DNA of 63,780 nucleotides, filler included, from Reclinomonas americana ATCC 50394 (GCA_048213135.1; 17 parts of 17 records of this genome joined end to end with filler, not necessarily neighbours in it), one strand, 5' to 3'; positions 98 to 61,593 are shown, counted from the first letter of the whole stretch. Notes: generated from the letters alone by a model not told the origin. A program made the numbers and translations.

Positions 98-420
98 CAC
101 ACGCACACACACACACTTCCGCACACTTTCCGCACACTTTTACACACTTTTCGCACACATACACACACTTTCACACACTTTTGCCACTTACACTCTTGAC
201 CATACACCCTTCCACACACTTACACACAGAGAGACACACACAAACACACACAAACACACACTTTTGCACACTTTTCGCACACTTTTCGCACACTTCCCCT
301 TCCACTCTCTCTCGCTCTCTCTCTCTCTCTCTCGCACACACACACACGCACACACGCACAGAGACACACATACACACGCACACACTTTCGCACACTTTCG
401 CACACTTTCACCACACACAA
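1..420. repeat. (CA)n microsatellite and degenerate CACACTTT repeats, probably intronic
   Basis: Direct reading of the sequence. Confidence 0.9.
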
Positions 421-469
421 ACCCCGTCCCTCTCCCTCCCTCCCTCTCTCTCCCTCTCATCTACACAAC

Positions 470-608
470 GATCATGCCGCGACTGCTGCTGTAGCTGTTG
501 CTGCTGCTGCTGTTGCTGAGAGAGAGCTCCACTTGCACTGCTCGTTGCGCCTCCCATCGAGGCCGCAGCTGCGCGACGACGCGACGAGGCTGATCGTCGT
601 CCACTCAT
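470..608 (-). CDS. Probable first exon of an unidentified gene running off the left edge (MSGRRSASSRRRAAAAS...polyQ...RHD)
   Basis: ATG at 608, polyQ-coding tract, then a C|GTTGTGT donor at 469 matching the window-wide shifted donor class; no homology recognised. Confidence 0.4.
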
Positions 609-762
609 CGCAGACTGAGAGAAAGAGAGAGAGAGAGAGGCTGTTGACACAAACAAAAACCACGCGCGCTGCTCTCTCCCTGCGCTTCTTCTACGTTGTT
701 TTGTGAATCGGATGTGTTCGGAGCGGAAAAAACCGCAAATTTGTTTGTCGTGAAATACTGTA

Positions 763-1190
763 CAGCAATCGTGCAAGCCGCGCATGCTTCCGTGTCGGTG
801 GTGCAAGTGCGTTATGATACTTGAAAGCATACACTGGTATTGATGGTGGCCTTGGTGGCTGTTCGACATATCGATATCGAATTTTGCAATTGCAAGCGAA
901 TTCGAATACAGCAATCGTGCAAGCGGATGGTCGCTGTTGGTGGTGCGAGTGCGTGTTATGATACTTGAATGCAACCGCTGCCGTTGATGACGGTGGCTGT
1001 TTTTTATCTCGATATCTATTTTCTGCAATTGCAAGCGAATTCGAATACCGCAATCGTGCGAGCCGGCATCATGTCGGTGGTGCAAGTGCGTGTTATGATA
1101 CTTGAATGCAAGCGCTGCCGTTGATAACGGTGGCTGTTTTTTATCTCGACATCGATTTTTGCAATTGCAATCCGGTTCGATATCGATATT
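763..1190. repeat. About 3 diverged tandem copies of a ~145-bp unit rich in palindromes (TCGATATCGA, TTGCAATTGCAA, CGAATTCG)
   Basis: GGTGGTGC(A/G)AGTGCG..TTATGATACTTGAA and TGCAATTGCAA each recur three times between the divergent genes at 608 and 1436. Confidence 0.8.
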
Positions 1191-1435
1191 CAGCTACCGA
1201 GCAAAGTCGGGAGCCATAATTACCAGCACATGCCGCGTAATAGTACAGACAGCGTTGTTGATCTTGCACGGACGCTCGGCGAACTCGCGGGCGCCGGTTT
1301 TGTGCATTTGCACATCGCTTGTGGGTCTTTGGCGTGGGCAGTACGTCACAAGAATGCTTCGTCCTCGACCGCACTTCGTCCCACTCCTCGTTCATCATCG
1401 TCTTCCACGATCGCACAGACACTCTCTCCCTCTTC

Positions 1436-2536
1436 ATGTCTCTCGCTCCCTCCCCCCTCCTCCTCCCTTCCAGCCGCCTCGCCGGGCACACCGGTAGGGT
1501 GAACTCTGTCGCCGTCACTCCCGACGGCCGGCACATTGTGAGTGCCAGTGCAGACAAGACCATACGTGTGTGGTCTGTGGCGAGTGGCGCAGAGGTGCGC
1601 CGGTTGGGGGGGCGCGCTGGTTCGGTATTCTCCGTCGCTGTCACCCCCTGCAGTCGTTACATTGTGAGTGGGGGAGAGGACAAGATTGTGCGGGTGTGGT
1701 CACTGGAGAGTGGTGAAGAGGTGCGTCGTTTGGAGGGACATGAGAATTCGTGTATCGCCGTCGCCCCCGATGGAGAGCACATTGTGAGTGGTGGCTCTGA
1801 TAACACTGTACGGGTGTTGTCACTCACAACTGGCGATGAAGTGCGACAAATCTTTGAAGGAGGCATCCAGGTGCATTTGTCTGTCGCCGTCACTCCCGAC
1901 AGTCAGCACATCGTGAGCGGAGGCTTAGGGCTTGACATGCTTGTGCGCATGTGGTCGCTGTCAACTGGCGAAGAAGTCAGGCGCTTCTCCGGGCATTCGC
2001 GTTGGGTGATGTGTGTTGCCGTCACCCCCGATGGATTGCACGTGGTGAGTGGGAGTATGGACTGCACGGTGCAATTGTGGTCTGTGGCGAGTGGTGCAGA
2101 GGTGCGACAGTTGGAGGGACACACGGACTGTGTGCGGTCCGTAGCCGTCACTCCCAACGGACAGCATGTGGTCAGTTGCAGTGAAGACACAACCGTACGA
2201 CTGTGGTCACTGGCGAGTGGCGAAGAAGAGTGCCGGCTAAAGGAGCATGATCATCTACTGACATCTGTCACCGTCTCTCCCGACGGACAGCACCTGCTGT
2301 GCGGGAGCCAAGATTGCACCATTCGCATGTGGTCGACGCCGTGCTGTCTCGCTCGTGAAGAGGCACAAGATGCGCGATTCGCGTTGCTGGCTGTGCAGGA
2401 GATGCAGCGGGAGGGACGGGAGGAGGAGGAAGTCGATTCTCGCTGTCTGGCAGAGATGGCCCTACGCTGCTTCATCGTCGAGGATGCAACGGCCGTGCTG
2501 CACCGATGCAGTGTGGACCCTGAGTTGCATTTGTGA
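1436..2536 (+). CDS. WD40 array copy A: intronless 7-blade WD40 protein plus ~60-aa conserved C-terminal tail
   Basis: Seven ~42-aa repeats GH..V..VAVTPDG.HIVS...D.TVRVW; start MSLAPSPLLLPS shared by all copies. Confidence 0.9.
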   Translation: MSLAPSPLLLPSSRLAGHTGRVNSVAVTPDGRHIVSASADKTIRVWSVASGAEVRRLGGRAGSVFSVAVTPCSRYIVSGGEDKIVRVWSLESGEEVRRLEGHENSCIAVAPDGEHIVSGGSDNTVRVLSLTTGDEVRQIFEGGIQVHLSVAVTPDSQHIVSGGLGLDMLVRMWSLSTGEEVRRFSGHSRWVMCVAVTPDGLHVVSGSMDCTVQLWSVASGAEVRQLEGHTDCVRSVAVTPNGQHVVSCSEDTTVRLWSLASGEEECRLKEHDHLLTSVTVSPDGQHLLCGSQDCTIRMWSTPCCLAREEAQDARFALLAVQEMQREGREEEEVDSRCLAEMALRCFIVEDATAVLHRCSVDPELHL

Positions 2537-2701
2537 ATGAGTATCCTTTTCTTGTGTTGTATTCGCCCTTGGTGGTTCTTCAAGTAAAGTCAAGAACATA
2601 ACGTCGGTCGGCATACATGTGCCTTCGGTCCTCGACAGCACTTCGTCCCACTCCTCGTTCATCACCTTCCGCGATCGCACGGACGCCCTCTCTCCCTGTT
2701 C

Positions 2702-3805
2702 ATGTCACTCACTCCTTCCCCAGCCCTCCTCCTCCTCCCTTCCAAGCGTCTCGTCGGGCACACGAGCTTCGTGTACTCTGTCGCCGTCACTCCCGACGGC
2801 CGGCACATAATAAGTAGTAGCGCCGACGAGACCGTGCGTGTTTGGTCCGTGGCAAGTGGAGCAGAGGTGCGATGTTTGTATGGACACACTGGTGCGGTAT
2901 TCTCCATCGCCGTCACCCCCTGCAGTCGTTTCATTGTGAGCGGAGGTGATGACAAGTCTGTGCGAGTGTGGTCACTGGAGAGTGGCGAGGAGGTGCGTCG
3001 GTTGGAGGGACATGAGTATTGGGTGCCTTGTGTCGCCGTCGCCCCCGATGGAGAGCACATTGTGAGTGGTGGATCGGATAAGACAGTACAGGTGTGGTCC
3101 CGCGCAACTGGCGATGAATTGCGACGAATTGAGGGAGGCTGCCAGGTGTACATCTCTGTCGCCGTCACTCCCGACAATCAGCACATCGTGAGCGGAGGGC
3201 TTGACATGCTTGTGCGCATGTGGTCGCTGTCAACTTGCGAAGAAGTCAGGCGCTTCTCCGGGCACTCGGATTGGGTGATGTGTGTTGCCGTTACCCCCGA
3301 TGGATTGCACGTGGTGAGTGCGAGCCAGGACCGCACGGTGCGAGTGTGGTCTGTGGCGAGTGGCGCAGAGGTGCGGCGATTGGAGGGGCATGTGTCGAAC
3401 GTGCTTTGTATCGCTGTCACTCCCAACGGACAGCATGTGGTCAGTTGCGGTGAAGACATAACCGTACGAGTGTGGTCATTGGCGAGTGGCGAAGAAGAGT
3501 GCCGGCTAAAGGAGCATGATCATCTGCTGGTATCCGTCTCCGTCTCTCCCGACGGACAGCATCTGCTGTGCGGGGGTCATGATTGCACCATTCGCATGTG
3601 GTCGACGCCGTGCGGCCTCGCTCGTGAAGAGGCTCAACATGTGCGATTCGCGTTGCTGGCTGTGCAGGAGATGCAGCGGGAGGGACGGGAGGAGGAGGAA
3701 GTCGATTCTCGCTGTCTGGCAGAGATGGCACTGCGCTGCTTCATCGTCGAGGATGCAACGGCCGTGCTGTACAGATGTAGTGTGGATCCCTCGTCGCACT
3801 TGTAG
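2702..3805 (+). CDS. WD40 array copy B
   Basis: Same architecture as copy A; ends DPSSHL-TAG. Confidence 0.9.
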   Translation: MSLTPSPALLLLPSKRLVGHTSFVYSVAVTPDGRHIISSSADETVRVWSVASGAEVRCLYGHTGAVFSIAVTPCSRFIVSGGDDKSVRVWSLESGEEVRRLEGHEYWVPCVAVAPDGEHIVSGGSDKTVQVWSRATGDELRRIEGGCQVYISVAVTPDNQHIVSGGLDMLVRMWSLSTCEEVRRFSGHSDWVMCVAVTPDGLHVVSASQDRTVRVWSVASGAEVRRLEGHVSNVLCIAVTPNGQHVVSCGEDITVRVWSLASGEEECRLKEHDHLLVSVSVSPDGQHLLCGGHDCTIRMWSTPCGLAREEAQHVRFALLAVQEMQREGREEEEVDSRCLAEMALRCFIVEDATAVLYRCSVDPSSHL

Positions 3806-3982
3806 TCTGCAGCAAGAGAGTGTCTCACGCTCCCTTTTCAAGTAAAGCCACATCGGTCTTCGGCGTAGTGGGCAGTACGTCACAAGATAAGAATGCTTCG
3901 TCCTCGACCGCACTTCGTCCCACTCCTCATTCATCATACATCGTCTTCCACGCACGCACAGACACTCTCCGGATCCCTCTTC

Positions 3983-4198
3983 ATGTCCCTCGCTCCCTAC
4001 CCCCTCCTCCTCCCTTCCAATCGCCTCGCAGGGCACACTGGTTGGGTGTACTCTGTTGCCGTCACTCCCGATGGCCAGCACATTGTGAGTTCCAGTGCAG
4101 ACGAGACCATTCGTGTGTGGTCCGTGGCAAGTGGAGCAGAGGTGCGATGTTTGTATGGACACACTGGCGCGGTATTCTCTGTCGCCGTCACCCCCTGC
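3983..4198 (+). CDS. WD40 array copy C, 5' part cut by gap
   Basis: MSLAPYPLLLPSNRLAGH.. then two WD repeats before the Ns. Confidence 0.8.
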
Positions 4199-4298
4199 NN
4201 NNNNNNNNNNNNNNNNNNNNNNNNNNNNNNNNNNNNNNNNNNTTAATTAATTAANNNNNNNNNNNNNNNNNNNNNNNNNNNNNNNNNNNNNNNNNNNN

Positions 4299-5320
4299 CC
4301 ACTCCCGACGGTCAGCACATTGTGAGTGCCAGTGAAGACAAGACCGTGCGTGTGTGGTCTGTGGCGAGTGGCGCAGAGGTGCGACGGCTGGAGGGGCACG
4401 CTGGACAGGTGCACTATGTGGCCGTCACCCCCTGCAGTCGATACATTGTGAGCGGAGGTGACGACAAGACTGTGCGAGTGTGGTCACTGGAGAGTGGAGA
4501 AGAGGTACGACAGCTGCTGGGAAACCCGTCTTGGGTGGCGTGTGTCGCCGTGACCCCCGACGGCGAGCACGTTGTGAGTGCAGGCGGCTATGATAACGCA
4601 GTGCGTGTGTGGTCGCTGGCGAGTGGCGAGCAGGTGCGCCAGTTGGACGGACACACAGAGATGTCGTTGTGTGTTGCCGTGACTCCCGACAGTCGGCATG
4701 TGGTGAGCGGGAGCGCGGATACCACAGCGCGAGTGTGGTCACTGGCGAGTGGGGAGGAAGTGCACCGATTGGATGGGCACACAGAGTCGGTGATTGCCGT
4801 CGCCGTCACTCCCGACGGGGTGCACGTGGTGAGCGGGAGCCGAGACTGCACCGCACGAGTGTGGTCTGTGGCGAGTGGCGCAGAGGTGCGACGGTTGGAG
4901 GGACACGCGGACTGGGTGCGGTCTGTCGCCGTCACGCCCAACGGACTACATGTGGTGAGTGGCGGCGAGGACATGACCATACGACTGTGGTCGCTGGCGA
5001 GTGGCAAGGAGGTGCGCCAGCTGAAGGAGCGTGCTTGCTTGGTGTTATCGGTCGCCGTCGCCCCCGATGGGCAGCACTTGCTGTGCGGGAGCCACGATTG
5101 CACGATTCACGTGTGGTCGACGCCGTGCGGTCTCGCGCGGCAGGAGCTTCAAGGCGCTCGTGATGCGTTGCTGGCTGTGCAGGAGATGCAGCGTGAGGGA
5201 CGGGAGGAGGAGGAAGTCGATTCTCGGTGTCTGGCAGAGATGGCATTGCGCTGCTTCATCGTCGAGGATGCAGCGGCCGTGCTGCACCGATGCAGCGTGG
5301 ATCCTGAGTTGCATCTGTGA
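4299..5320 (+). CDS. WD40 array copy D, 5' end in gap
   Basis: Resumes within blade 1, while copy C had already entered blade 2 with a different sequence, so this is a separate copy; full tail to DPELHL. Confidence 0.85.
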
Positions 5321-5494
5321 ATGAGTTTCCTTTATCTTGTATTGTGTTTGCCCTTGGTGGTTCTTCAAGTAAAGCCACATCGCTTGTGGGTCTCAGACGG
5401 GCAGGGCGTCACAAGAATGCGTCGTCCTCGACCGCACTTCGTCCCACTCCTCATTCATACCATCTCCACGCACGCGCACGCTCTCTCCCTCTTC

Positions 5495-6595
5495 ATGTCT
5501 CTCGCTCCCTCTCCCCTCCTCCTCCCTTCCAGGCGCCTCGCCGGGCACACTGGTTGGGTGTACTCTGTCGCCGTTACCCCCGATGGCCAGCACATTGTGA
5601 GTGCCAGTGAAGACAAGACCATACGTGTGTGGTCTGTGGCAAGTGGCGCAGAGGTGCGACGGTTGAAGGGACACACTGCATACGTGCTGTCTGTCGCCGT
5701 CACTGCCGATGGACAGCACATTGTGAGTGGGGGAGAGGACCAGACTGTGCGAGTGTGGTCACTGGAGAGTGGCGAGGAGGTGCGACAGCTGCTGGGACAC
5801 CCGTCTTGGGTGGCGGGCGTTGCCGTGGCCCCCAACGGCGAGCACATTGTGAGCGCAGGCGGTTACGACAACGCAGTGCGTGTGTGGTTGCTGGCGAGTG
5901 GCGAGCAGGTGCGCCAGTTGGACGGACACACAGAGTTGTCGTTGTGTGTTGCCGTCACTCCCGACAGTCGGCACGTGGTGAGCGGGAGCGCAGATGCCAC
6001 AGTGCGAGTGTGGTCACTGGCGAGTGGGGAGGAGGTGCGTCGACTGGTGGGGCACGCGGAAGCGGTGATTGCTGTCGCCGTCACCCCCGATGGATTGCAC
6101 GTGGTGAGCGGGAGTCGGGACCGCACGATTCGGGTGTGGTCTGTGGCGAGTGGTGCAGAGGTGCGACGGTTGGAGGGACACACGGACTGGGTGATCGCAG
6201 TCGCCGTCACTCCCAACGGGCTGCATGTGGTGAGTGTGAGTCGTGACATGACCGTACGAGTGTGGTTGCTGGCGAGTGGCGAAGAAGAGCGGCGGTTGGA
6301 GGGACACACTGGTGACGTGCGGACTGTCGCCGTTACTCCTGACGGACAACACATTGTTTGTGACGACCATGACCTGACAGTACGTGTGTGGTCGACGCCG
6401 TGCGGTCTCGCTCGGCAGGAACTCCACGCAGCTCGTGAAGCGTTGCTGACTGTGCAGGAGATGCAGCGTGAGGGACGGGAGGAGGAGGAAGTCGATTCTC
6501 GGTGTCTGGCAGAGATGGCATTGCGCTGCTTCATCGTCGAGGATGCAGCGGCCGTGCTGCACCGATGCAGTGTGGATCCCGAGTTGCATTTGTGA
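5495..6595 (+). CDS. WD40 array copy E
   Basis: Seven WD repeats plus conserved tail. Confidence 0.9.
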   Translation: MSLAPSPLLLPSRRLAGHTGWVYSVAVTPDGQHIVSASEDKTIRVWSVASGAEVRRLKGHTAYVLSVAVTADGQHIVSGGEDQTVRVWSLESGEEVRQLLGHPSWVAGVAVAPNGEHIVSAGGYDNAVRVWLLASGEQVRQLDGHTELSLCVAVTPDSRHVVSGSADATVRVWSLASGEEVRRLVGHAEAVIAVAVTPDGLHVVSGSRDRTIRVWSVASGAEVRRLEGHTDWVIAVAVTPNGLHVVSVSRDMTVRVWLLASGEEERRLEGHTGDVRTVAVTPDGQHIVCDDHDLTVRVWSTPCGLARQELHAAREALLTVQEMQREGREEEEVDSRCLAEMALRCFIVEDAAAVLHRCSVDPELHL

Positions 6596-6762
6596 ATGAG
6601 TTTCCTTTATCTTTGTTTGCCCTTGGTGGTTCTTCAAGTAAAGCCACGGCGTTTGTGTGTCTCAGACGGGCAGCACGTTACAACGAAAGTGTTTGAAGTC
6701 CTCGTCCCACTCCTCAAGTATCATCCATCTTCCACGCACACACACACACACTCTGCCCATTC

Positions 6763-7535
6763 ATGTCGCTCACTCCTTCCCCTCTTCTCCTCCGTTCCAA
6801 GCGCCTCTTTGGTCACACAGGCATCGTGCGGACGGTCGCCTTCACAACCGATGGCCGGTTTATAGTGAGTGGAAGTGCCGACAAGACAGTGCGCATGTGG
6901 TCTATGGTGAGTGGAACAGAGGTGCGACGGTTGGAGGGGAACGCTGGCTCGGTATTCTCTGTCGCCGTCACTCCCGATGGACAGCACATTGTGAGTGGGG
7001 GCCATGACAAGACTCTGCGAGTGTGGTCACTGGAGAGTGGTGAAGAGGTGGAGCGACTGGAGGGGCACACATCGATGGTGGAGGCTGTTGCCATCACTAC
7101 AGATGGTCATTACGTGGTGATTGGCAGCGCAGGCAACACTGTGCGAGTTTGGTCATTTGCGAGTGGCGAAGAGCCGAGACGGTTGACGGGGCACACGGCA
7201 GGAGTGTCCTCTGTCGCCGTGACTGCCGACTGTCGGTACATTGTGAGTGGAGGATACGATCGCACAGTGCGAGTGTGGTCACTGGGGAGTGGGGAGGAAG
7301 TGCGTCGACTGGTGGGGCACACAGATGTAGTANNNNNNNNNNNNNNNNNNNNNNNNNNNNNNNNNNNNNNNNNNNNTTAATTAATTAANNNNNNNNNNNN
7401 NNNNNNNNNNNNNNNNNNNNNNNNNNNNNNNNCGATTCTCGTTGCTTGCCGGAGATGGTACTGCGCTGCTTCATTGTCGAGGATGCAGCGGCCGTGCTGC
7501 ACCGATGCAGTGTGGATCCTGAGTTGCATTTGTGA
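6763..7535 (+). CDS. WD40 array copy F (most divergent), spanning a gap; the tail fragment 7433-7535 may belong to it or to another copy
   Basis: MSLTPSPLLLRSKRLFGH, 4+ WD repeats before the gap; DSRCLPEMVLRCFIVEDAAAVLHRCSVDPELHL after it. Confidence 0.8.
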
Positions 7536-7713
7536 ATGAGTTTCCTTGTTCTTGAATAGAGTTGACCCTTGGTGGTTCTTCAAGTAAAGGCACATCGCTT
7601 GTGTGTCTCAGGCGGGCAGGGCGTCACAAGAATGCGTCGTCCTCGACCGCACTTCGTCCCGCCTCACTCATTATCGTCTTCTACGACCGCACAGACACTC
7701 TCTCTCCCTCTTC

Positions 7714-8814
7714 ATGTCTCTCGCTCCCTCCCCCTTCCTCCTCCCTTGCAGGCGCCTCGCAGGGCACACTGGTTGGGTGTACTCTGTCGCCGCCACCCCC
7801 GATGGCCAGCACATTGTGAGTGCCAGTGACGACAAGACCGTGCGTGTGTGGTCTGTGGCAAGTGGAGCAGAGGTGCGACGGTTGGAGGGGCACGCTGGAC
7901 AGGTGCACTATGTGGCCGTCACCCCTTGCAGTCGTTTCATTGTGAGCGGAGGTGATGACAAGACTGTGCGCGTGTGGTCACTGGAGAGTGGAGAAGAGGT
8001 GCGACAGCTGCTGGGAAACCCGTCTTGGGTGGCGTGTGTCGCCGTGGCCCCCGACGGCGAGCACGTTGTGAGCACAGGCGGCTATGATAACGCAGTGCGT
8101 GTGTGGTCGCTGGTGAGTGGCGAGCAGGTGCGCCAGTTGGACGGACACACAGAGTTGTCGTTGTGTGTTGCCGTGACTCCCGACAGTCGGCACGTGGTGA
8201 GCGGAAGCGCAGATGCCACAGTGCGAGTGTGGTCACTGGAGAGTGGGGAGGAGGTGCGTCGACTGGTGGGGCACGCGGAAGCGGTGATTGCTGTCGCCGT
8301 CACTCCCGACGGGGTGCACGTGGTGAGCGGGAGCCGAGACTGCACAGCACGAGTGTGGTCTGTGGCGAGTGGTGCAGAGGTGCGACGGTTGGAGGGACAC
8401 GCGGACTGGGTGCGGTCTGTCGCCGTCACGCCCAACGGGCTACATGTGGTGAGTGGCGGCGAGGACATGACCATACGACTGTGGTCGCTGGCGAGTGGCA
8501 AGGAGGTGTGCCAGCTGAAGGAGCGTGCTTGCTTGGTGTTATCGGTCGCCGTCGCCCCCGATGGGCAGCACCTGCTGTGCGGGAGCCATGATTGCACCAT
8601 TCGCATGTGGTCGACGCCGTGCGGTCTCGCGCGGCAGGAGCTTCAAGGCGCTCGTGAGGCGTTGCTGGCTGTGCAGGAGATGCAGCGTGAGGGACGGGAG
8701 GAGGAGGAAGTCGATTCTCGCTGTCTGGCAGAGATGGCACTTCGCTGCTTCATCGTCGAGGATGCGGCGGCCGTGCTGCACCGATGCAGTGTGGATCCCT
8801 CGTCGCATTTGTGA
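7714..8814 (+). CDS. WD40 array copy G; another spacer begins at 8815, so the array probably continues into the gap
   Basis: Seven WD repeats plus tail; 8815-8872 repeats the conserved inter-copy spacer. Confidence 0.9.
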   Translation: MSLAPSPFLLPCRRLAGHTGWVYSVAATPDGQHIVSASDDKTVRVWSVASGAEVRRLEGHAGQVHYVAVTPCSRFIVSGGDDKTVRVWSLESGEEVRQLLGNPSWVACVAVAPDGEHVVSTGGYDNAVRVWSLVSGEQVRQLDGHTELSLCVAVTPDSRHVVSGSADATVRVWSLESGEEVRRLVGHAEAVIAVAVTPDGVHVVSGSRDCTARVWSVASGAEVRRLEGHADWVRSVAVTPNGLHVVSGGEDMTIRLWSLASGKEVCQLKERACLVLSVAVAPDGQHLLCGSHDCTIRMWSTPCGLARQELQGAREALLAVQEMQREGREEEEVDSRCLAEMALRCFIVEDAAAVLHRCSVDPSSHL

Positions 8815-8972
8815 ATGAGTTTCCTTGTTCTTGAATAGAGTTGACCCTTGGTGGTTCTTCGAGTAAAGCCACNNNNNNNNNNNNNNNNNNNNNNNNNNNN
8901 NNNNNNNNNNNNNNNNTTAATTAATTAANNNNNNNNNNNNNNNNNNNNNNNNNNNNNNNNNNNNNNNNNNNN

Positions 8973-37838: not shown

Positions 37839-40800
37839 ATGCAACACTCGAGCGCAGGTGTCACACAGCAATCAGCGCAGTTCCGCGAACGCTGGGAACG
37901 CGATGCTCCACTGAGCGAGTCACAGACTGTGCTCTTGCATCGACTGGAGGAGCACAGCTCTGCGCTCACAGGTCGCACAACAGCAACAACAACAGCGACC
38001 ACACACTCTGTGAGATACGCCACTGTAGACGCCTTCCTGGAGGCTCTTCAGCAGCAACGCGCGGGAACGTCAGCGCNNNNNNNNNNNNNNNNNNNNNNNN
38101 NNNNNNNNNNNNNNNNNNNNTTAATTAATTAANNNNNNNNNNNNNNNNNNNNNNNNNNNNNNNNNNNNNNNNNNNNAAACTGTGCGCAGGGAACGGACTG
38201 ATGATGATGATGATGAGCAGGAGGAAGAGGAGCTGCGACATGCGCGGCAAGTGGTCAATGAGTACAAGCAGACAGCATCGTCACTGGCACATGTGCTGCA
38301 GCTGCTGTCGCAGGTGGCCACGTTGCAGGCGAGTGCAGCCAAGGCCACACATCGATTGCATGCGGATTGCGCCACAGTGTTGGCGCAAGAGGTAAGAGCA
38401 GCAGCAGCAGCAGCAAGCTGAGAGTGGCGTGTTCACGTGTGTGTGTCGCAGGAACGATTGCGCGCAGTGGTGCAGAGCGTGGAGGAGCGCCTGAAGCACT
38501 TTGAGGTGCTCAATCGTGTCACGCGAGAGCTGTCGGGCGCGTCGGCACTGTCGCTGCTGACACTGGAGCGACCGACGCACGCGCGGCGAGATAGCGACAC
38601 CGAGTCGGTGGCCTCGAATGCCTCGTCGACTGCGGCGAGTGCCGGTGCATCGACGGGCCCGTCGTTCCCTCTCAAGCGATTGCTGCGCAAGTTGGATGCG
38701 GCGGTCAACTACATGCTGACCAACAGCGCCTTTAGCGAGAGCGGTGGCTACCTGGCCAAGCTGCGCACGGTGCAGTCGCGGTGCCTGGCGCTCCTGCGCG
38801 ATCACGTCACCAGCCAGGTGCGCGAGCTCACCGAGCAGCTGCAACGCGAGTCGAAGCCGGCCGGCGGACCCGGTTCGTTGGTGCGGCGGCGCTCGTCGCA
38901 GTCTGTCACTGCCGCGGCGGGCGCATCTGCGGGAAATGCAGCCGGCAGCGGCGAGGATCCCATGGCGCCGCGAGAGGGCGGACGTCTGGTCGTCAGCGGC
39001 GGTGAACGGTACGAGAGGCCGAATCCAATCCCCCTTTTCTTTTCCATTCTCAACTCCCTCCCTCCAGCGATACATCGGCCGTGCAGTACGTGCGTTTCCG
39101 CGCACTGGCCCAGCGCATGCGCCCGCTGATTGAGGAGATGGAGCGCCGCGCCTCACGGCGTGAACACGCCCTCTACCTGGAGGATGTGTTCGAGGCGTTT
39201 GTCATGTGCCGACGCGGTCTGCTGGCACCCACGCTGGCGGCGCGCATGGACTCACTGAAGATGCTGGAGCACGACTTGCCGTCGGTGGTGCGCGACGGAT
39301 GCTTGATGGTGCTGAACGTGGCGGCGCACGAGAGCGACTTGTGCGCGCAGTTTTTCTCGTCGCCCAACTTGAAGGAGTCGACGCAGTTACGTGTTGCGGC
39401 AGCTGGTGCAGTTGTTTACTTCATGTGATGGTCTCTCACCTCCAACGACAGCGCCTTCCTGGCCGAGGTGTGCCGCGAGCTGCAGAGCTGTCTGCGCCCG
39501 CTTATCATTCGGCAGCACTCTGTCGACGCGCTGTGTGCGGCCATTCGTGTGCTGCGCTCGGAAATCATGCTCCACTGCAGCGCACCCGCTGCGTCCTCCG
39601 TGGACGCGTCAAGCGGCGCTCCCGCCTCGTCATCTGCAGTTGTGTGATGAAATAATCAATGCTTCTCACCTTCGGTGTTCTGACTCGCGGGCACGCACAG
39701 GGCGCACCGGCGGCCTTCTCGGCCAGTGTCGGCGGCGTGCTCACCGAGCTGCAGGAGCGACTCATTTTTGTCGCCGAGCGCTTTGTGGAGACGCGCATCG
39801 CCGGCTTTGTGCCGCCCTCCAATCTGGAGCGCTTCCGCCGACCATCCGATCAGCTGGCGGCGCAGGCGGCGAAACGCTGGAAGTCGGAGACATGGGACGA
39901 CGACGACGATGGCTACGACGATCTTGATGGAGGCAATGGTGGTGGTGGTGGTGGAGGAGAGGGAGGAGGTGGTGGTGGTGGTGGCGATGGAGGCGATGGA
40001 GGCGAGGCAGCGTGCAACTGGTATCCGACGCTGCTGCGTACGCTGGAGCTGTTGAGCAAAATCTATCGAAGCCTGGAGGTGCGCACGTTCGAGAGCATTG
40101 CGCAGGAGGCGGTGCAGATTTGCACATCGACGCTGGTCGACATTAGCGAAAAGGTGGCGGCGCAGCTCGGCGAAGTGCAGGCGCACCTCTTTCTCATCTC
40201 GCACCTGCTGTGCTTGCGAGAGCACCTGTCGACGTTTCAGGTGGATTTCGCCAGGTTGGTGCTGTCGCACGCGCACGCACACACACATGCGCTCGCTTTA
40301 GCTCACTACGTGAACCCCTCCGCAGCACCGAGTACGTGCTGGATTTCACGCACGTTCCCGAGGTGTTTTCGCGACTGCTGCGCGGCGACAGCCAATCGCT
40401 GCTGGCCGAAGGCGTGTGGGGTCTCGTCTATCGCACCGGCGTGCAGCTGACGCAGGCGAGCTCCGATTCGAAAAAGGACTTGGAGCGGGCGTTGAAGCTG
40501 CGCTGCGAGTCGTTCATGATGATGGCCACACGCGCCGCCATTGGCCCGCTCCTCAACCACTTGTCGCGCCTGACGGCCGCCAAGGAGGCCGGCCAGCACG
40601 AGGTGTTTGAGGCGCTGCTGCGTCGCGAACGTGTGGCCGAGGTGCTGCGTGATGTGCGCGACGACGGTCTCTCCACGCAGTTGCGGCAGGTGTATCAGCA
40701 CATGTCGGTGCATCTGACGGACGCGGTGACCAAGAGCATCTTGTTGCGACCGGTGCGCTGCAACATTGTCGACTCGTTCGACCAGCTGGTCAGCTTTGCC

Positions 40801-41423: not shown

Positions 41424-41780
41424 CTGTGGGAGAAGGAAAGGGGTGAGAGGGTGAGAGGGAAAGGTGAGAGGGGGGAGAGGGAAGGGGGAGGAGGAGGAGG
41501 AGGAGTGAAGCGGAAGGAGTGAAGGAGAAGGAGAAGAACGAGAAGAAGAAGAAGAAGAAGAAAGAGAAGAAGAACAAGAAGACGAAGAAGAGGTAGAGGA
41601 AGAAGAAGAAGAAGAGAGAGAGAAGAAGAAGAAGAAGTAAGTAGAAGAAAAGAAGAAGAAGAAGAAGAAGAAGAAGAAGANNNNNNNNNNNNNNNNNNNN
41701 NNNNNNNNNNNNNNNNNNNNNNNNTTAATTAATTAANNNNNNNNNNNNNNNNNNNNNNNNNNNNNNNNNNNNNNNNNNNN

Positions 41781-44700
41781 TCTGGCGGTGTGGATCTCTG
41801 GTCTGCTGCACCCGTCGCTGCCGCCGATGTACAACCTGCTGACGTCGCCGGGCATCTCCACCATGTGCCCGTCTGGTGAGTTTTTTGACACACTTTTTGT
41901 TCACCACATCACAAACAGTGACTGACTCTCTTCCTCTCTTTTCAGCTCGTGAAACTGTGGCTTGGTTCCCTCGCGAGGCTCGCGATCTGATGGACCTGTC
42001 GCATGCCATCAAGAAGAACCCCGACGAGTGGGTCTTCTTCTGCAAGCGCGTCCTGCTCGACTACGAGACCACTCGCACGGCGCGCGACCAGCGCGCTCTC
42101 GGCCACATGCTGTCTGTGTTCGGCATCCACCGTTACGACCCCGAGACTCACGAGATGGACAAGATCGTCAACGACCCGCGTTGCAAGCCGACCCACGACC
42201 ACCGCGGCCATCGCCTCAACACCGCCGCCTCCAAGATGGTGTACGACTCGCTGGCCAAGAACATTGGCATTCTGCGCTACCTCAACAACGATCAGCACAC
42301 TGAGGTGTTCGACTCGCTGTTCTACCTCGACCGCAAGTACTTTGAGGCGCTGCGCCGCTGGATGAGCGGTCGCATTCAGTCGCTGTCGCGTACCATTCGC
42401 GGCTTCGGCACCACGTGGAAGGCCATGTCGGTGCTGTGCCGCATTCAGAACCCGCGCATGAGCAAGTCTCGTGCGGTGGCGGTGGCCGAGGACAAGTACC
42501 AGATGGTGGTGTCGTTCCAGGAACTCGGCGAGACCATCAAGGGCTCTCGCTGGGAGAAGCATCCGTCGGGCCAGCAGCTGGTCAACCAGCAGAACGTGCT
42601 CGATCTGCTCGACACGATGTGCAACTTGCCGGTCGACCTGGTGACGGTGCTGCGTCGCGACACTCGCTACTTCTCGGTGCGCTACCGCGTGCGCCGTGTG
42701 AATGGCAACATTATGCTGTTCTTGCAGCGCAAGCTGAAGGTGTGTGTTTGAAGAGTGACACATGGGCGTGTATTTGTGCTTCCATTGTGTGCTCACTCTT
42801 CTCTCCTCTCGTTTCTCCTCACAGCTTCCGGGTGACTTCTTGTTCGGCAACGGCAAGAGTGACAACCAGTCGCAAATGCTTTTGCATGTGCGCAACCCGC
42901 TGATTCAAGCCGTCGATGTGAACCAACATGGTTCTCCCGAGGAGCAGATGAAGCTGGTGTGCGTGGCCGAGGAGTTCAACATTGACCGCCGCCTGGCCAT
43001 TATCGGCTTCTCGCAGTATGTGATTACTGACGGCTGGACTCCGGTCGGCAGTGTCGCTGCCTCCAACGAGCGCACGTTCAACGCCACTCTGCAGCGCGGC
43101 CTCGACATGATTGGCCTGCGCACTCACTACGGTCAGCCCGATCTGATTGCCTACGACTACCTTGTCGGCTACAACGGCGAGTCTCTGTCGGACTTTGTGT
43201 CTGAGGATACGCCGAAGGGTGTGACGGTGCATCTGTTTGGCCTGCGTGTCGGTCACGCCGACTACATCACCTGCGGCAAGGGTCGCGATTGCTGCTTGCC
43301 GACGACCAACCGTTTCTCGCTGAAGATTTCTGCCGGTGGCGGAGAGATTGGCACGACTCAGATGTTCCGCGACGCCATGCGCAGCAACCACATTGGCCTG
43401 TGCAAGCGGTGGTCACTGTACCACAGTCTCATGGGTGAGGAAATGGGCAGAAGTGGGAAAGGGGGAAAAGGGGCAAGGGGGGGGAGAGGGGGAGAGAGGG
43501 AGAGGGAGAGAGGGGGAAAGGGGCAAGGGGGAGAGGGGAAGGGGGAGAAGAACAGGGGGGGAAGGGGAGAATGAGACTGAGGGGACAGGGAGGAAGAAAA
43601 GGGGAACAGGAAAGGGGGAGTGGAGGAGAAGGGGACGACGGAGAAAGATGGGGAGGGAGAAGGCAGAGAAGAAGAGGGGAGTGAGACAGAGGGTAGAAGG
43701 AGAGGTGGGATAGTGGGGGAGTGCGTAGAGGTGGAAAACGAGTGGAGATGGTGGGAAGAGAGCATGTGAGTTGTCTTTGTTTATTTGATGGTGTTGACAG
43801 TTTAGAAGTTGTGGCGATGAGACCTGTTTCTCACTGATGTGTCGTTTGTGTTGCAGGATTCTTCACGTCACAGTATGTGATTGTGTGGGGTATCATTGTG
43901 TTCCTTGTCNNNNNNNNNNNNNNNNNNNNNNNNNNNNNNNNNNNNNNNNNNNNTTAATTAATTAANNNNNNNNNNNNNNNNNNNNNNNNNNNNNNNNNNN
44001 NNNNNNNNNCAAAGGGAGAAGGAGATAGAGAGGAAGAGAAGAGACATAGAAGAGAAGAGAGAAGAGAGAGAGAAAAGGAGCTCGTTCAAAATCTTTGTTG
44101 CTCACTCCTCTCTTTGTTTCGCATCGCAGACACTGGTCATCGCTTCAGCTACTACGCTGAGATCCGCTCGTTCGGTGTGCCGCCTGGCCAAGACTTCCGT
44201 CTGGAGGGCGCGGTGCCGCCGGATGCCAAGGACCGACCGGAGGTGCGCTCGGTGCAGAATGTGGTGTCGGAGAACCCGCGCACGCTCGCTCGCGAGTCGC
44301 GCCGCCTCGGCTCCAAGATCCTGCTGGCCATTCTGACCTTCACGTGCCTGTGGGCGGTGGTCGTCGTGTTGGCGGTGGTGATCTTTGTGATCTACCACGT
44401 GCTGCGCGCCATCTTCAAGTGCTGCTGCGGATGCTGCTGCCGCAAGAAGAAGAAGGAGGACGAGGAGGAGACGGTGGAGGAGTCGGAGAATGAGATGCCG
44501 AATCTGGACAAGTTCAAGACGCCGTCGCTGGCGTCGGACGCGACCGAGACCTCGGTGGTGCTCATCAACTCGGAGCTGGAGTACGCCGAGGGACCGGCAC
44601 CGTGGGAGGAGACCGATTATTCGATCCTCGTGCACGAGCGTGGCAAGAACCCGTGGCGTGCCGTCAAGGGCAAGACCACCGACATCAACCTCGCCGACGA

Positions 44701-47011: not shown

Positions 47012-47135
47012 CGAAGGACGACGAGGAAGAAGAGANNNNNNNNNNNNNNNNNNNNNNNNNNNNNNNNNNNNNNNNNNNNTTAATTAATTAANNNNNNNNN
47101 NNNNNNNNNNNNNNNNNNNNNNNNNNNNNNNNNNN

Positions 47136-48912: not shown

Positions 48913-50349
48913 CTATCCACTCCGATTGTTGATCACCGCCAGCACGCGACCGGGGAGCGCCAGCGGCGGCAGGCACAGCGCCACGCAGCCCTCGGAGGTC
49001 TGTGAGTAGTACAGCTGGATGGCCGACTTGGCCAGGCGGCGGCGTGCCTGTCGGAACTGCTGGTGCATCCACCGGAGGCAGTCGACCAGCGGGTCCACCG
49101 ATGTCCAGTGCTGGCGCTCGGGAGCGTCGGCTGGCTGTTGCTAAAGTCAGGGAGAGAGAGAGAGAGAGAGTGAGGTGTGTGAAAGTAGGATGCGCACGCA
49201 CCCACACGTCTCCCATGCGGAGGGCGTGGCGGGCGAGGATGCGAGCGGCCGCGGCGAGGGTGGACGGCTGGTACTGCAGCACGCCGACGTCGAGGAGCGA
49301 CACCTCCAGGATGTACTGCGCGCGCGGAGGATGTCACCAACAAGTGCTTGCCTGGACCGGTGGTGTACCACGCAACTTGCACCAGCTTCTCAAACTGCGC
49401 CAACACAGCAGCCTCCTGCTTGCTCCCGCCACGTCGCCGCAACGCGCGCCGGTCAAAGCTGGAGAAGGTGGTGGCAAAGGTGGCCGCCGTGGCCGAGAAG
49501 CAGCGAAAGTCGAGCGCACGCAGCATGTGCGACTCCTGCTTGCCAATCTGCAAGGCACGAAAGGTGAGACATCTCACTGGCGGGGCTGGAGAGGTGTGCG
49601 CGACGTACCTCCTCCGCCGTGTAGGCATTGTCGGTGAGCGCGGCCACTCCGTGCAACGAAGGCACAGTGGCCTCCTCAAATTTCCTGCTCATCCTGATGA
49701 GGAGACTGGGAAGTAGAAAGGCACAGTGTAGGTGGAGGGAGCAACGCAACACGGCCACCAGCAGCGCCGCTGCTCCCACCAACTGCAGTCGACTGCGCGG
49801 GACATCGCGACCCGCGCGCTCCGAGGAGAAGGCCAAGTCGGTGAGTCGCACGGCCAGGTGCACGGTCTCCGGCGACGCCTGCAGCTCGTGCAAGCAGTCG
49901 ACAATCCACTCGACCAACACAAAGCGCATGTTGGGCGTGGTGTGCCGCTGGAGGCCCTCGGTGGGGTCCAAGTACGAGGGCAGCGGTTGTGGCCAGCGGA
50001 GAGTTGTCTCGCCCTCGAACATGAGCTGCAGTGAGTGCTCCATGTGGTACCACTGGCAGATGTCGGTGTCGGTGGAGCCGGGGGGAGTGTTCTCGTCGCT
50101 GTTGGTGGAGGAGGGGGGTGCGAGGATGACGGTCACGGGCTCTGTGTGTGAGAGAGAGAGGGAGAAGAGTGAGAGATTGTGAGAAACTGACTCACAAGGA
50201 AGTGAACCTTTGTGCTCGCTGAGAGGTGCCGCGGGTTGTGAGTGGGGAGGCGAGGACATGTTGTCGGATTGCTGTGGCGGGTGTTGCGCAGAGTCCTCGG
50301 TGGCTCCCGAGGGTGAGGAGTGGGAGATTGCGTTTTCTCCGTCGCGCAT
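48913..50349 (-). CDS. A/B-type cyclin; start at 50349 or 50260
   Basis: PNMRFVLVEWI, ETVHLAV, LQLVGAAALLVAV|KFEE, TDNAYT.EE, YILEVSLL...YQPSTLAAAA. Confidence 0.88.
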
Positions 50350-51149: not shown

Positions 51150-54100
51150 ATGTTCTCCGTGCCCGCGTGGGATGCCTCCGAGCAACCGCCTCGCAAGCGC
51201 CAACGCGTAGACACAACAACAACCACCACAACAACACAAGAGAAGAAGAAGAAGAAGAGCAAAAAGTCCCAGTCAAACACCGAGTCGCTCTTTGTCATTC
51301 CCGCGCCTCCCGTCGCCCGCAGCGAGGCCGCACAGGAGAAGAAACGCGACAAACGCCGTCGTCGCAAACAGCGCGCGCGTGAGGAAGTCACACAGCGACT
51401 TGCGCGCAAGGCCGAGAAGCATGCTGCTGCAGAGGTCGAGGTCGAGGCTGAGAAGGCCAAGGCGGTGGAGGCGGAGGCCGACNNNNNNNNNNNNNNNNNN
51501 NNNNNNNNNNNNNNNNNNNNNNNNNNTTAATTAATTAANNNNNNNNNNNNNNNNNNNNNNNNNNNNNNNNNNNNNNNNNNNNAAGGGGGAAGGGGGGAGG
51601 GAAAAAGGGAACAGCTCCTCAATACTTTTCTTTTTCATTTCTTGCATGTTGGTCTTTCACTTGTTCTTCTTCCTGTTACTCGTCTCCTCCTTGTCTCCAT
51701 TCACTTTTCTTTCTCCCCTTCGCGTACTCCTGCGTGTTCTGCCTCTCCCGAGCTTGCATGTATCGTTAACCTGCGTTTGATGTTTTGCTGTCCAGGTTCC
51801 TTCTTCGTGCTTTCTGCAGTCTCCACCTCCTCGTTCTTGCTTCCTCTTATTCTCCTACCCGCCTCGTCTGCAATCCCGTTCGTCTTGTTCTCCATTCCGT
51901 CATGTTGACCTCTTGCTTGTTGTGCTTTCGCTTATTCTTGCTCCTGTTGCATCGTCTCCTCCTTGTCTCCTTTGCGTACTCCTCCGTCTTCTTCCTCTCA
52001 TGTGCTTTCCTGTTCTGCTCTTCTCGGTATCCTGCCTTTGATGTTTTGCCCTCCAGGTTCTTCTTCGTGCTTTCTGCACGTCTTCACCTCCTCATTCTTG
52101 TTCCTTCTCATTCTCCAACCCTGCCTCGTCTGCTTCCACCCCGTTCGTCTTACTCTCCATCCCGCCATGTTGACCTCTTGCTTGTTGTGCTTTCGCTTGT
52201 TCTTTCTCTCCTTCGCGTACTCCTACGTTTTCTTCCTCTCCTGTGCGTTCGTTCTCTTTATTCTGCATCTTCTGCTTGCTCTCCAGGCTCTTCTTCGTGC
52301 ATTCTGCACGTCTCCACCTCCTCGTTCTTGCTTCCTCTTATTCTCCTACCCGCCTCGTCTGCAATCCCGTTCGTCTTGTTCTCCGTCCCGTCATGTTGAC
52401 CTCTTGCATGTTGGTCTTTCACTTGTTCTTCTTCCTATTACTCGTCTCCTCCTTGTCTCCATTCACTTTTCTTTCTCCCCTTCGCGTACTCCTGCGTGTT
52501 CTGCCTCTCCCGAGCTTGCATGTATCGTTAACCTGCGTTTGATGTTTTGCTCTCCAGGCTCTTCTTCGTACTTTCTGCACGTCTTCACCTCCTCATTCTT
52601 GTTCCTTCTCATTCTCCAACCCTGCCTCGTCTACTTCCACCCCGTTCGTCTTGTTCTCCATCCCGTCTTGTTGACCTCTTGCTTGTTGTGCTTTCGCTTG
52701 TTCTTTCTCTCCTTCGCGTACTCCTACGTTTTCTTCCTCTCCTGTGCGTTCGTTCTCTTTATTCTGCATCTTCTGCTTGCTCTCCAGGCTCTTCTTCGTG
52801 CTTTCTGCACGTCTCCACCTCCTCGTTCTTGCTTCCTCTTATTCTCCTACCCGCCTCGTCTGCAATCCCGTTCGTCTTGTTCTCCGTCCCGTCATGTTGA
52901 CCTCTTGCTTGTTGTGCTTTCGCTTGTTCTTGCTCCTGTTGCTCGTCTCCTCCTTGTCTCCTTTTCCAGAATCGTCTTCCACTTTTCTTCTCTCCTTCTC
53001 GCACTCTTCGTTGATTTCTCAGAGCCGCCTGCATTTTCTTTCTCTTCCCCTCTCCTTTCGTTTTTTGCTGTTTTATTTCCTCTGCATCCACTCTTGTGCC
53101 ACACCTTGGTCGTCTTCTCTTGTTCTGCGTTTGCCGTTCGCATGAATCGATCTTCTCCTCTCCCTTGTCGAAATCTTTCTCCTGCATTGTCTTCCTCTCT
53201 TGTCGCCTTCTCATCGTCCTCCTCCCCCTTCCCCATTTCCCCCCCGCAGTACCACGACGGCTTCCGCAAGCAGGTCTCCAAGTGGCCGCAGAACCCGCTG
53301 CAGCTCATGATTGACTACGTGCGGCGGTGTCCGCCGGAGTGGACGATTGCGGATTTCGGGTGCGGCGAGGCGGAGCTGGCGCGCACGCTGCACGAGTCAC
53401 ACCCGCACATTCACTCGTTCGACTTGGTGGCGGCGAATGAGTTTATCACGGCGTGTGATGCGGCGAATGTTGAGCATTGGGGGGAAGGGATTGGGGGGGA
53501 AGGGAGGTGTGGGAGAGGGTGGATGAATATGGAGAGGCAACGTCTCCTTTCCTTGGCAAACTGAGGAGAGAGACCTGGTGTGCGCGGTCTGTTTCCTTTT
53601 CCTTGACAGACTTTCGCGAGAGAAAGAGACTGTCCGTGCTTGAGCCGTTTGTCTTCTCCTCCTTGGCAGACTGAAGAGAGAGAGGGAGAGAAAGAGAGAG
53701 AGAGAGACTGTCTCTGCCCTGATCTGTCTCACCTTCTCCTTGGTTGCCTGGGAGAGAGTGGCTTGCTGTGAGCTGCCTGTCTCCGATTGTGGCAACCGAG
53801 AAGAGACAGACCGTCCTTGTGAGCCATCTGTCTCTTTTCCCTTTACATGCCGCGAGAGAGTTGGAGAGTCCGTCTTTGCTCTGATCTGTCTCACTTCCTC
53901 GGCAGGCAGTGGAGAGGGAGCGTCTTCTCTGTCTTCTTTTCCTTGGTAGACGGGGAAGAGAGAGACTGTCCCTGCTTGAGCCGTCTGTCTCCTCCTTGGC
54001 AGACGGAGGAGAGAGAGACCGTCTCTGTGAGCCGTCTGTCTCCTTCTCTTCCTCCCTCCCTCACCCTCTTGCCGCCGCACAGACGCCCCTCAAGGACTCG

Positions 54101-55691: not shown

Positions 55692-56526
55692 GAGAGACAG
55701 TAGTTGCAGAGACGAGTGCCTGAGGATGTGCCCACTGTGGTCAGTGAATGAGAGAGAGAAGGGAGAGAGAGATGAGAGATGAGAGAGCGCGGGAGATTGA
55801 TTTGGGGTTTCGCGCTCTCCTGGAGAAGAGAGGGAGAAAGTGGCAAAGCAGAAGGAGCAAGAGGTGAGAAGGGAGAGAGAGATACAGAAGGAGGAGTTGA
55901 GACTGATTCTCTCTCTTCCTTCAGGGTCTCCTCTGACTCCAGTTTCTTGTTGTCTTCTTCATCTTGTTTCCTTCTTCTCCTCCTCCTCCTCCTCTCCTTC
56001 TTTTTCTTCTCCTCCAGAACCTCTTACTTGTTCCGCTTCTTCTCCTTTCTCCTTGCTTCTCTTCTCCTCGCTCATTCGTCCTCCCTCCTCCTCTCTGTCT
56101 TCTCTTTCTTTTTTCTTCTTCCTCCCTCATCTCCTTCTTCTTTGTCTTCCTCTTTTTTCTTCTTCTCCTCCTCTCCCTTCTCTTTCTCTTCTTCTTCTCA
56201 CTCATTGACTCGCATTCCTTCTTTCTTCTCATGCCCTTCTCCTCCTCCTCCTCCTTGCTTCTCTTCTTCTCCGTCTCCTCCTCCTCTCGCGTTCTCTCCC
56301 CCTTGTCTCTGCTCGTTTTCTGACTACAATTTCGCAGCCCCCTGATCAGGCCAGCCACATTCTGCAACTCAAGGCGCGACTGCAAACACTGAATGAGGAG
56401 AAGGCGGCGGCCAAGGTGCTCATGGTCAACATGACCAAGGAGATGCATGAGCGCGAGGTCAGTGACATGCTCTTCTCCCCGGACTCTCCATCCTGCCCTT
56501 GTCTCTGATGATTTGGCCTTGTGCTC

Positions 56527-56575
<49 letters not shown>

Positions 56576-61493: not shown

Positions 61494-61593
61494 NNNNNNN
61501 NNNNNNNNNNNNNNNNNNNNNNNNNNNNNNNNNNNNNTTAATTAATTAANNNNNNNNNNNNNNNNNNNNNNNNNNNNNNNNNNNNNNNNNNNN

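Follow-up and report, generated by a model that had tools for sequence, protein, structure and literature searches.

A tandem family of intronless WD40 genes in Reclinomonas americana pairs a variable propeller face with a constant C-terminal tail

Does a set of neighboring WD40 genes whose products differ most on the presumed ligand-binding face of the propeller amount to a repertoire of non-self receptors, or to something more ordinary? So far, consensus-like, hypervariable WD40 propellers have been linked to fungal and bacterial receptors of the STAND or NLR type. The question was raised by positions 1436-8872 of a 63,780-nucleotide (nt) stretch of the Reclinomonas americana ATCC 50394 assembly (GCA_048213135.1). 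Here an initial annotation of the whole stretch, hereafter the window, had described a tandem array of WD40 genes with hypervariable binding-face residues and proposed a diversifying, possibly immune-like receptor repertoire. We favor, at a probability of roughly 0.55, a multigene family specific to this lineage, whose small stand-alone WD40 proteins would serve as adaptors or in recognition and combine a variable face with a constant tail. Limited searches of the literature on jakobid WD40 genomes, tandem diversifying WD40 paralogs, and the fungal HNWD family found no description of a stand-alone tandem WD40 family in protists.

Gene Copies and Their Arrangement

Listing and translation of open reading frames (ORFs) placed four complete and four partial WD40 copies on the + strand at 1436-8872. 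These represent at least seven distinct genes, because copies C5 and Cp overlap in alignment yet differ; E5 and Fp could be one gene. The complete copies A (1436..2536), B (2702..3805), D (5495..6595), and F (7714..8814) are intronless ORFs encoding 366 amino acids (aa), or 367 in B, with Pfam WD40 E-values of 5.5e-68, 5.2e-70, 1.6e-72, and 4.2e-71, respectively. Contig boundaries truncate the others. C5 (3983..4198) retains a 5' part of 72 aa and E5 (6763..7332) the first 190 aa, both interrupted by a contig end, while two copies begin at a contig start: Cp (4301..5320), which lacks about 29 N-terminal aa, and Fp (7434..7532), reduced to the last 32 aa of the tail and the stop codon. E5 is the most divergent copy, with 61-64% aa identity to the others; Cp is 94% identical to F.

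Start-to-start distances between copies are 1266-1281 bp, and the spacers of 165-181 bp can all be aligned with one another: A-B (2537..2701, 165 bp), B-C5 (3806..3982, 177 bp, with an initial ~50 bp unlike the other spacers), Cp-D (5321..5494, 174 bp), D-E5 (6596..6762, 167 bp), and Fp-F (7533..7713, 181 bp). Ahead of copy A, the segment at 1325..1435 (+) can be aligned with the 3' half of all spacers between copies and is a likely promoter or 5' leader; sequence upstream of 1325 shows no alignment with the spacers. The region 5' of copy A and the other spacers are identical at 117-131 of 168-175 positions. The array very likely continues past 8872, which is a contig end and not an array end, because the sequence after F (8815..8872), the beginning of a next spacer, is 59/61 identical to the start of spacer Fp-F. 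Within the window, tblastn found no further copies outside these contigs.

All 16 gaps in the window are linkers of the form N44-TTAATTAATTAA-N44, which carry stop codons in all six frames, and the window is a chain of contigs of about 1.1-11 kb each. Because the pieces were joined artificially, gene neighborhood across linkers is not trustworthy. The array therefore resolves into three contigs of 4198, 3034, and 1440 bp, bounded by linkers at 4199..4298, 7333..7432, and 8873..8972, the last followed by unrelated sequence. The head-to-tail units of ~1.27 kb and the count of at least seven first described for this locus were recovered, with order known inside each contig only (A-B-C5, Cp-D-E5, and Fp-F).

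Several features of simple sequence accompany the genes. At 871-1170, just 5' of copy A, a 137-bp unit is repeated in tandem (2.2 copies, 88% matches); positions 11-456 are densely filled with (AC)n, (CT)n, and similar short repeats; and an ORF with a poly-Gln run at 408-869 (-) lies opposite a TGC/TGCTGC repeat at 484-518. Antisense ORFs of up to 223 aa (for example 5863-6534) cross the WD40 genes on the minus strand of 1436-8814 and are themselves repeated; we took them as by-products of a GC-rich repeat rather than as genes.

Propeller Fold and Repeat Class

The WD40 family (PF00400) was matched in all four complete copies with 223-237 bits, against a cut-off of 27, over 6-7 repeats. The lack of a NACHT domain noted at the outset held up: Pfam returned only WD40 and other propeller families for the complete copies, with neither NACHT, HET, nor other effector domain. 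In addition, a conserved ATG stands 17-19 codons ahead of the first GH in all six copies with an N-terminus, and the spacers are short. For these three reasons the N-terminal NACHT and HET domains of HNWD proteins are not part of the Reclinomonas family.

An AlphaFold2 model of copy F, built on a 7-row alignment, predicts a seven-blade propeller followed by a C-terminal hairpin (mean predicted local distance difference test score, pLDDT, 87.1; predicted template modeling score 0.82). Its 28 strands make up the seven blades, the propeller covers approximately residues 10-300 with pLDDT above 90 over most of its length, and an N-terminal strand at residues 10-16 closes the ring; two modeled helices, 302-325 and 335-360, come after it. 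Among solved structures, those nearest to the family are bacterial propellers of the repetitive kind and designer proteins based on them. The closest is 2ymu, a repetitive propeller from Nostoc (phmmer E 2.1e-139; VIA Z 48.7, root-mean-square deviation [rmsd] 1.2 over 290 residues), followed by PkwA (5yzv; Z 48.6, rmsd 0.8 over 284 residues) and the designer protein WRAP-T (7big; Z 48.3).

Blades of the same copy share on average 55% of their amino acids (0.546) and 65% of their nucleotides, with a maximum of 82% aa identity among 110 comparisons. The mean falls in the band of 0.4-0.7 termed "moderately repetitive" in the available text of Hu et al. 2017 (PMC5587647), although it was computed with our own blade register and not by the method of that paper; the same text places about 2% of the WD40 proteins of fungi and protists above an internal identity of 0.4. 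In each full copy, 3-6 of the 7 blades have the whole H-[ST]-D-W tetrad, copy A having 3 of 7. Internal identity and high tetrad density, together with the best sequence and structure matches, liken the family to the prokaryotic repetitive WD40 proteins covered in the accessible part of PMC5587647 (2YMU of Nostoc punctiforme; PkwA, 5YZV, of Thermomonospora curvata), for which diversity at hotspot sites is noted as well. Unlike them, the Reclinomonas proteins are eukaryotic, consist of a single propeller without kinase or STAND domain, and belong to a tandem multigene family.

The comparison with fungal HNWD receptors that had been drawn for this locus extended to their highly identical repeats, and there it fails. 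Internal repeat identity in HNWD reaches up to 100% in the sections consulted of PMC1805685, and in those of PMC4986451 internal conservation counts as high when it exceeds 85% over 100 aa or more. The Reclinomonas blades, at 55% on average and 82% at most, fall short of both. HNWD proteins also carry variable numbers of repeats, 10 or more, in contrast to exactly 7 blades per gene here.

The C-Terminal Tail

Downstream of the propeller lies a conserved segment of ~65 residues, predicted to form a helical hairpin in the full model and also when folded alone (pLDDT 71.6). Its conservation is high, 42 of 77 columns being invariant among five copies and P0173, an ORF from a Reclinomonas americana expressed sequence tag (EST) in EukProt. 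P0173 emerged from an exhaustive phmmer search in which the last propeller strands plus tail were compared with 1.84 billion representatives at E up to 0.001. Among the five matches it alone covered the tail convincingly (E 9.5e-23, 69% identity), and it is 58-68% identical to the five copies over 115-116 aa. Because this relative comes from an EST, at least one family member is probably transcribed in Reclinomonas. Judged by this single protein, the source of the genes is probably a jakobid or a related organism. The other four matches were rejected: P0174 is a repetitive protein from rabbit with 22% identity, and P0175-P0177 match only query residues 1-34, the last propeller strands.

No fused protein bearing the tail was found among the 1.84 billion representatives. 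A word search among shorter proteins gave 34 candidates, none of which scored, and missed P0173 itself; a metagenome scan with the tail alignment gave 480 pattern matches and no relatives; and the best score against the protein atlas, 0.76, was below lead level. Neither an F-box nor a SOCS-box appeared among the best 25 of the 46-52 Pfam families listed per complete copy, where very remote kinship may escape the HMMER filters, or in three tails scanned alone at E up to 10, where those filters drop most matches above E 0.1. A DNA-ligase zinc-finger match in two of the three tails (E 3.8-3.9) was taken as noise, and the idea that the second tail helix is BC-box or SOCS-like was dropped for want of a family match.

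The last four residues are the most variable part of the otherwise constant tail. Copies B (3794-3805) and F (8803-8814) end in -SHL, copies A, Cp, D, and Fp in -LHL, and P0173 in -MYL. We take -SHL to fit the consensus [SAC][KRH][LM] of the peroxisomal targeting signal type 1 (PTS1). As only B and F fit, a PTS1 reading of the family C-terminus was dropped. The WD40 proteins are probably cytosolic.

Could the family descend from a bacterial repetitive WD40 gene that was acquired by horizontal transfer and then amplified? This is a claim about origin that is compatible with the other readings, and we regard it as quite improbable. The genes lack introns, the nearest solved structures are bacterial, and the full-protein homologs listed (best 120 of 1314) are generic bacterial or metagenomic WD40 proteins from Planctomycetota, cyanobacteria, and others, with 27-55% identity over 64-95% of the query. 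However, consensus-like WD40 repeats match one another whatever their descent, and identity does not exceed 55% either in those 120 or in the best 80 of the 525 relatives that a metagenome scan with copy D recovered among 586 matched stretches. The hairpin, moreover, has no bacterial counterpart in the searches made. GC content at third codon positions (GC3) of the WD40 genes, 0.64-0.71, agrees with the 0.58-0.73 of five other ORFs in the window, a match that marks their composition as native.

Variable Positions on the Top Face

For comparison between copies, blades were placed in a register of 42 positions numbered from the residue after GH. Diversity between copies was greatest at positions 3 (0.70), 5 (0.70), 21 (0.62), 1 (0.61), 2 (0.56), 40 (0.55), 6 (0.53), and 23 (0.53), compared with a mean of 0.28 over the whole register. 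Positions 3 and 5 flank a conserved Val and positions 21 and 23 a conserved Asp; together these four average 0.64, and only 7 of 111,930 four-position sets are as diverse. The pattern is non-random and real, and it lies where the initial annotation had placed it, in the loop after GH and around the conserved Asp. The motifs from which that proposal started were all recovered: TGRVNS (A), TSFVYS (B), TGWVYS (C5, D, and F), and TGIVRT (E5) in blade 1; AGSVFS, TGAVFS, AGQVHY, and TAYVLS in blade 2; and TDCVRS, VSNVLC, ADWVRS, and TDWVIA in blade 6. Variation in the residue before the Asp (position 21) was likewise found, as a mean pairwise difference of 0.62.

This arrangement is that of the Podospora anserina HNWD/NWD genes het-d and het-e, which share consensus-like WD40 repeats with variable top-face pairs flanking the conserved Val and Asp. 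As far as the available text of Paoletti 2007 describes them (PMC1805685), the HET-D/E codons under positive selection are 7 and 9, on either side of conserved codon 8, and 25 and 27, on either side of conserved codon 26. Register positions 3, 5, 21, and 23 are identically spaced and correspond to codons 7, 9, 25, and 27 of that description. An HNWD-like immune or non-self repertoire without NACHT, in which diversifying selection acts on the top faces while concerted evolution keeps the scaffold uniform, would explain the shared x-V-x and x-D-x pairs as well as the chemical diversity of the top-face residues (W 7%, Y 6%, R 8%). We nevertheless consider it unlikely. Among the features already described, the absence of effector domains, of any tail-bearing fusion, and of HNWD-grade blade identity speaks against it, as does the fixed number of blades.

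Divergence and Mosaic Exchange between Copies

Across 21 copy pairs, aa identity ranged from 61 to 94%, nt identity from 67 to 95%, and synonymous divergence (dS) from 0.14 to 0.97. Whole-gene ratios of nonsynonymous to synonymous divergence (dN/dS, or omega) were 0.20-0.44 in 20 pairs and 0.65 in one pair of 72 codons, and the frames of the four complete copies have stayed open despite mutual dS of up to 0.67. Such values mark the copies as old paralogs subject to purifying selection rather than as haplotypes or products of duplicate assembly. A scaffold that is "nearly invariant", as first described, is an overstatement, given nonsynonymous differences per site (pN) of 0.02-0.23 in the scaffold and dS of up to 0.97.

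That one or two genes were simply assembled several times, an outcome already envisaged as fatal to the proposal, is barely credible. It is the kind of error that a poor draft with short contigs joined by linkers invites, and Cp and F, 94.6% identical in nt and located on different contigs, could be allelic, the sole pair for which this applies. Yet even these two differ at 19 codons, including the C-terminus, and their downstream spacers are identical at 53 of 61 positions. All other pairs have nt identities of 67-87% and dS of 0.22-0.97, and each contig holds two or three differing copies head to tail. The range of dS makes haplotype or assembly duplication very unlikely for the family as a whole.

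Exchange between copies has made the genes mosaic. Identity between D and F reaches 98% at codons 135-195 and drops to 54% near codon 270. In the quartet A, B, E5, D, the N-terminus and blade 1 hold 13 sites that group A with D and B with E5 and 1 site that groups A with B and E5 with D, whereas blades 2-4 hold 3 and 50 such sites, respectively (Fisher's exact p 2.9e-10 for the contrast between regions). Segment trees disagree as well. Blade 2 of D groups with blade 2 of E5, blade 7 of D is nearer to blade 2 of D than to any other blade 7, and in all three blades have their closest match at a position other than their own. Divergence at four-fold sites was weakly heterogeneous across blades (p 0.016-0.33 in six pairs), so the clear case for mosaicism is made by the quartet counts. 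Repeat segments are also exchanged between members of the HNWD family, and blade or segment exchange thus counts toward a non-self repertoire. Unlike in HNWD, the Reclinomonas blades mostly keep their position, the same blade being 78% identical in nt across copies versus 65% for other blades, and their number has stayed constant at 7.

Selection at the Top Face

Purifying selection holds the scaffold and the tail. With Nei-Gojobori counts and local synonymous differences per site (pS), omega was 0.17-0.40 in the scaffold and 0.12-0.31 in the tail; at positions 1, 2, 3, 5, 21, and 23 (omega_top) it was 0.22-1.17 in 13 pairs, with 2 further pairs saturated. When gene-wide dS was used, omega_top4 was 0.45-1.61 in eight pairs, and the bootstrap interval excluded 1 in one of them and contained it in the other seven. 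Pooled pN exceeded global pS at 4 of the 42 positions (3, 5, 40, and 21).

Likelihood estimates came from our own GY94-F3x4 partition model with segment-specific trees, which allows for mosaicism. When all codons shared one synonymous rate, omega_top was 1.61 for partition TOP4 (against 1, twice the log-likelihood [lnL] difference 8.86, p 0.003), with omega of the rest at 0.28 and equality of top and rest rejected at p 1e-25, and 1.48 for TOP6 (against 1, p 0.005). Over these shared-rate partitions the rest lay at 0.25-0.29, and the top class differed from it at p 1e-25 to 1e-32. Once the top face was given its own synonymous rate, omega_top fell to 0.55 for TOP4 (p 0.08), 0.67 for TOP6 (p 0.11), and 0.61 for TOP8 (p 0.025, below 1), the synonymous rate being 2.95, 2.31, and 2.54 times that of the rest; for TOP4 this fit was better by 5.7 lnL. 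Among 26 random scaffold control sets, omega was 0.11-0.50 and the synonymous rate 0.40-1.73, and the top face lies outside both ranges. In the youngest pair, Cp-F, omega_top was 0.40-0.45 and only 6 of the 16 propeller replacements fell on the top face, most of these six being conservative.

The dN/dS comparison invited by the initial annotation therefore gave a split answer, diversifying selection being indicated at omega_top 1.48-1.61 with a shared synonymous rate and disappearing at 0.55-0.67 with an own rate. An omega above 1 at the top face is not established, and positive selection is model-dependent and not robust, which is a further difference from HNWD. There is a lesson here for future scans, as dN/dS at such sites flips from above to below 1 once variation in synonymous rate and mosaicism are modeled. 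What can be said is that replacements accumulate 4-6 times faster in top-face codons than in the scaffold and that silent changes are also faster there (2.3-3 times). Such codons fit patchwise conversion from diverged donors, old loop variants kept amid homogenized flanks, or saturation.

For a non-self repertoire, the evidence of this section cuts both ways. The shared-rate estimates and the four positions with pooled pN above global pS agree with it, and the excess of synonymous change, reached by none of the 26 control sets, fits selected old loop variants. The own-rate estimates with their better fit, the bootstrap intervals, and the youngest pair oppose it.

No part of a WD40 propeller is under less constraint than its loops. 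The main rival to our reading is accordingly a set of ordinary drifting paralogs with relaxed loop constraint, largely redundant or partly decaying copies that form no ligand repertoire. Both omega_top under local synonymous rates and the Nei-Gojobori values with local pS agree with it, as do the scaffold lesions of copy A, in which GH has become GR before blade 2, blade 3 has lost 2 aa and changed a W to L, and blade 4 has gained 2 aa. We judge it somewhat unlikely all the same. All four complete copies are open-framed at dS of up to 0.67, with scaffold omega well below 1 (0.17-0.40), and the tail is strongly conserved, P0173 included. Top-face residues are retained in subgroups, such as the Trp at position 3, which 4 of 5 copies have in blade 3 and 3 of 5 copies have in blade 6, and omega_top exceeds that of every control set.

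A Proposed Family of Recognition or Adaptor Subunits

F-box/WD40 proteins, the SOCS-box WSB proteins, and DCAFs are WD40 substrate receptors in which a constant box binds an adaptor, and in WSB proteins a constant helical module lies C-terminal to the propeller. The Reclinomonas proteins, with a variable propeller and a short constant helical module, are similar in architecture by analogy only. Unlike those receptors, they have no F-box or SOCS-box family among the Pfam matches listed for whole proteins or tails.

In the scheme we favor, the family would expand by tandem duplication, and copies would swap blades or multi-blade segments through recombination or gene conversion. Purifying selection holds the propeller scaffold and the tail, and the top-face loops (on either side of GH and around the conserved Asp) change 4-6 times faster. 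Each paralog might then present a different top-face surface to its own peptide or protein ligand, and all paralogs could be coupled through the constant tail to one common partner or to one another, so that the family would serve as a set of recognition or adaptor subunits able to replace one another. General knowledge of WD40 proteins and the work on HET-E suggest that ligands bind at the top face, and the conservation of the tail suggests a role as a common docking or self-association module.

Several observations weigh against this scheme. Faster change in surface loops is expected of any set of WD40 paralogs and need not reflect distinct ligands for each paralog. The copies lie on three artificially joined contigs, and copy A, given its several scaffold lesions, may be decaying. 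The docking role assigned to the tail is a guess: three tails scanned at E up to 10 gave no Pfam family apart from the zinc-finger noise match, the tail fold matched only generic helical hairpins among 48,161 chains (best Z 8.0, a segment of an SMC coiled coil), and its two helices have modest pLDDT (58-71) in the full model. The pathway in which this orphan hairpin domain takes part would become evident from its partner.

The likeness to HNWD is an analogy, not membership, the private C-terminal tail of the tandem copies being one more point of difference, and an immune-like role is possible but unsupported and carries long odds. In a bolder version, at best an outside chance, a jakobid lineage, deep-branching among eukaryotes, would have evolved independently a recognition repertoire free of NTPase domains, built from 7-blade variable modules, one constant tail, and blade-level gene conversion. 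Selection would keep old top-face variants while the scaffold homogenizes, which would produce the excess of replacements and the 2.3-3-fold excess of synonymous change at top-face codons. The tail would plug each variant into one common signaling, degradation, or assembly partner, and the ligands, in a flagellate that feeds on bacteria, could be proteins of prey, symbionts, or viruses. A stand-alone tandem family with this site pattern in a jakobid-like protist would show either that the design of variable face and constant scaffold can work with no NTPase of its own, or that immune receptors are not reliably marked by the site pattern alone.

Our preferred adaptor or recognition family may also be set beside other WD40 proteins of jakobids. 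In the part of Horvathova et al. 2021 available to us (PMC8134430), the Pex7-like WD40 proteins Gcp1-Gcp3 co-occur with a mitochondrial type II secretion system in jakobids, heteroloboseans, and malawimonads, and partial Reclinomonas genome assemblies are mentioned. Like the present family, Gcp1-Gcp3 are WD40-only proteins of jakobids, and some are described in that text as having a predicted PTS1, as two copies here end in -SHL. Unlike the Pex7-like Gcp1-3, the proteins reported here are of the consensus-like repetitive type and nearest to 2ymu and PkwA, a probable separation made on the published description as available.

Other Features of the Window

The window has the character of a eukaryotic draft, with (AC)n and (AG)n microsatellites and 50-64% GC. 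Its remaining linkers lie at 15979-16078, 18243-18342, 19831-19930, 21718-21817, 22940-23039, 26877-26976, 38077-38176, 41681-41780, 43910-44009, 47036-47135, 51483-51582, 56658-56757, and 61494-61593. At gathering scores, Rfam gave no matches over the whole window. Of 17 further long ORFs compared with Pfam, 5 contain known families: a teneurin-type EGF protein rich in Cys (12356-13783, -), the C-terminal part of COG3 (39659-40450, +), a GT48 1,3-beta-glucan synthase fragment whose 30-35% identity to fungal FKS proteins says nothing about the taxon (42762-43574, +), a cyclin of the cyclin N family (49453-50349, -), and a Methyltransf_8 protein (52041-53564, +). Partial coverage of the Pfam profiles in several of these ORFs suggests introns, frameshifts, or contig breaks.

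The + strand is strongly pyrimidine-rich at 8001-10000, 52001-54000, and 56001-58000 (AT skew -0.43 to -0.52), and these stretches are probably low-complexity intergenic DNA. One of them contains a long pseudo-ORF rich in Ser, Leu, Pro, and Phe at 9056-9853.

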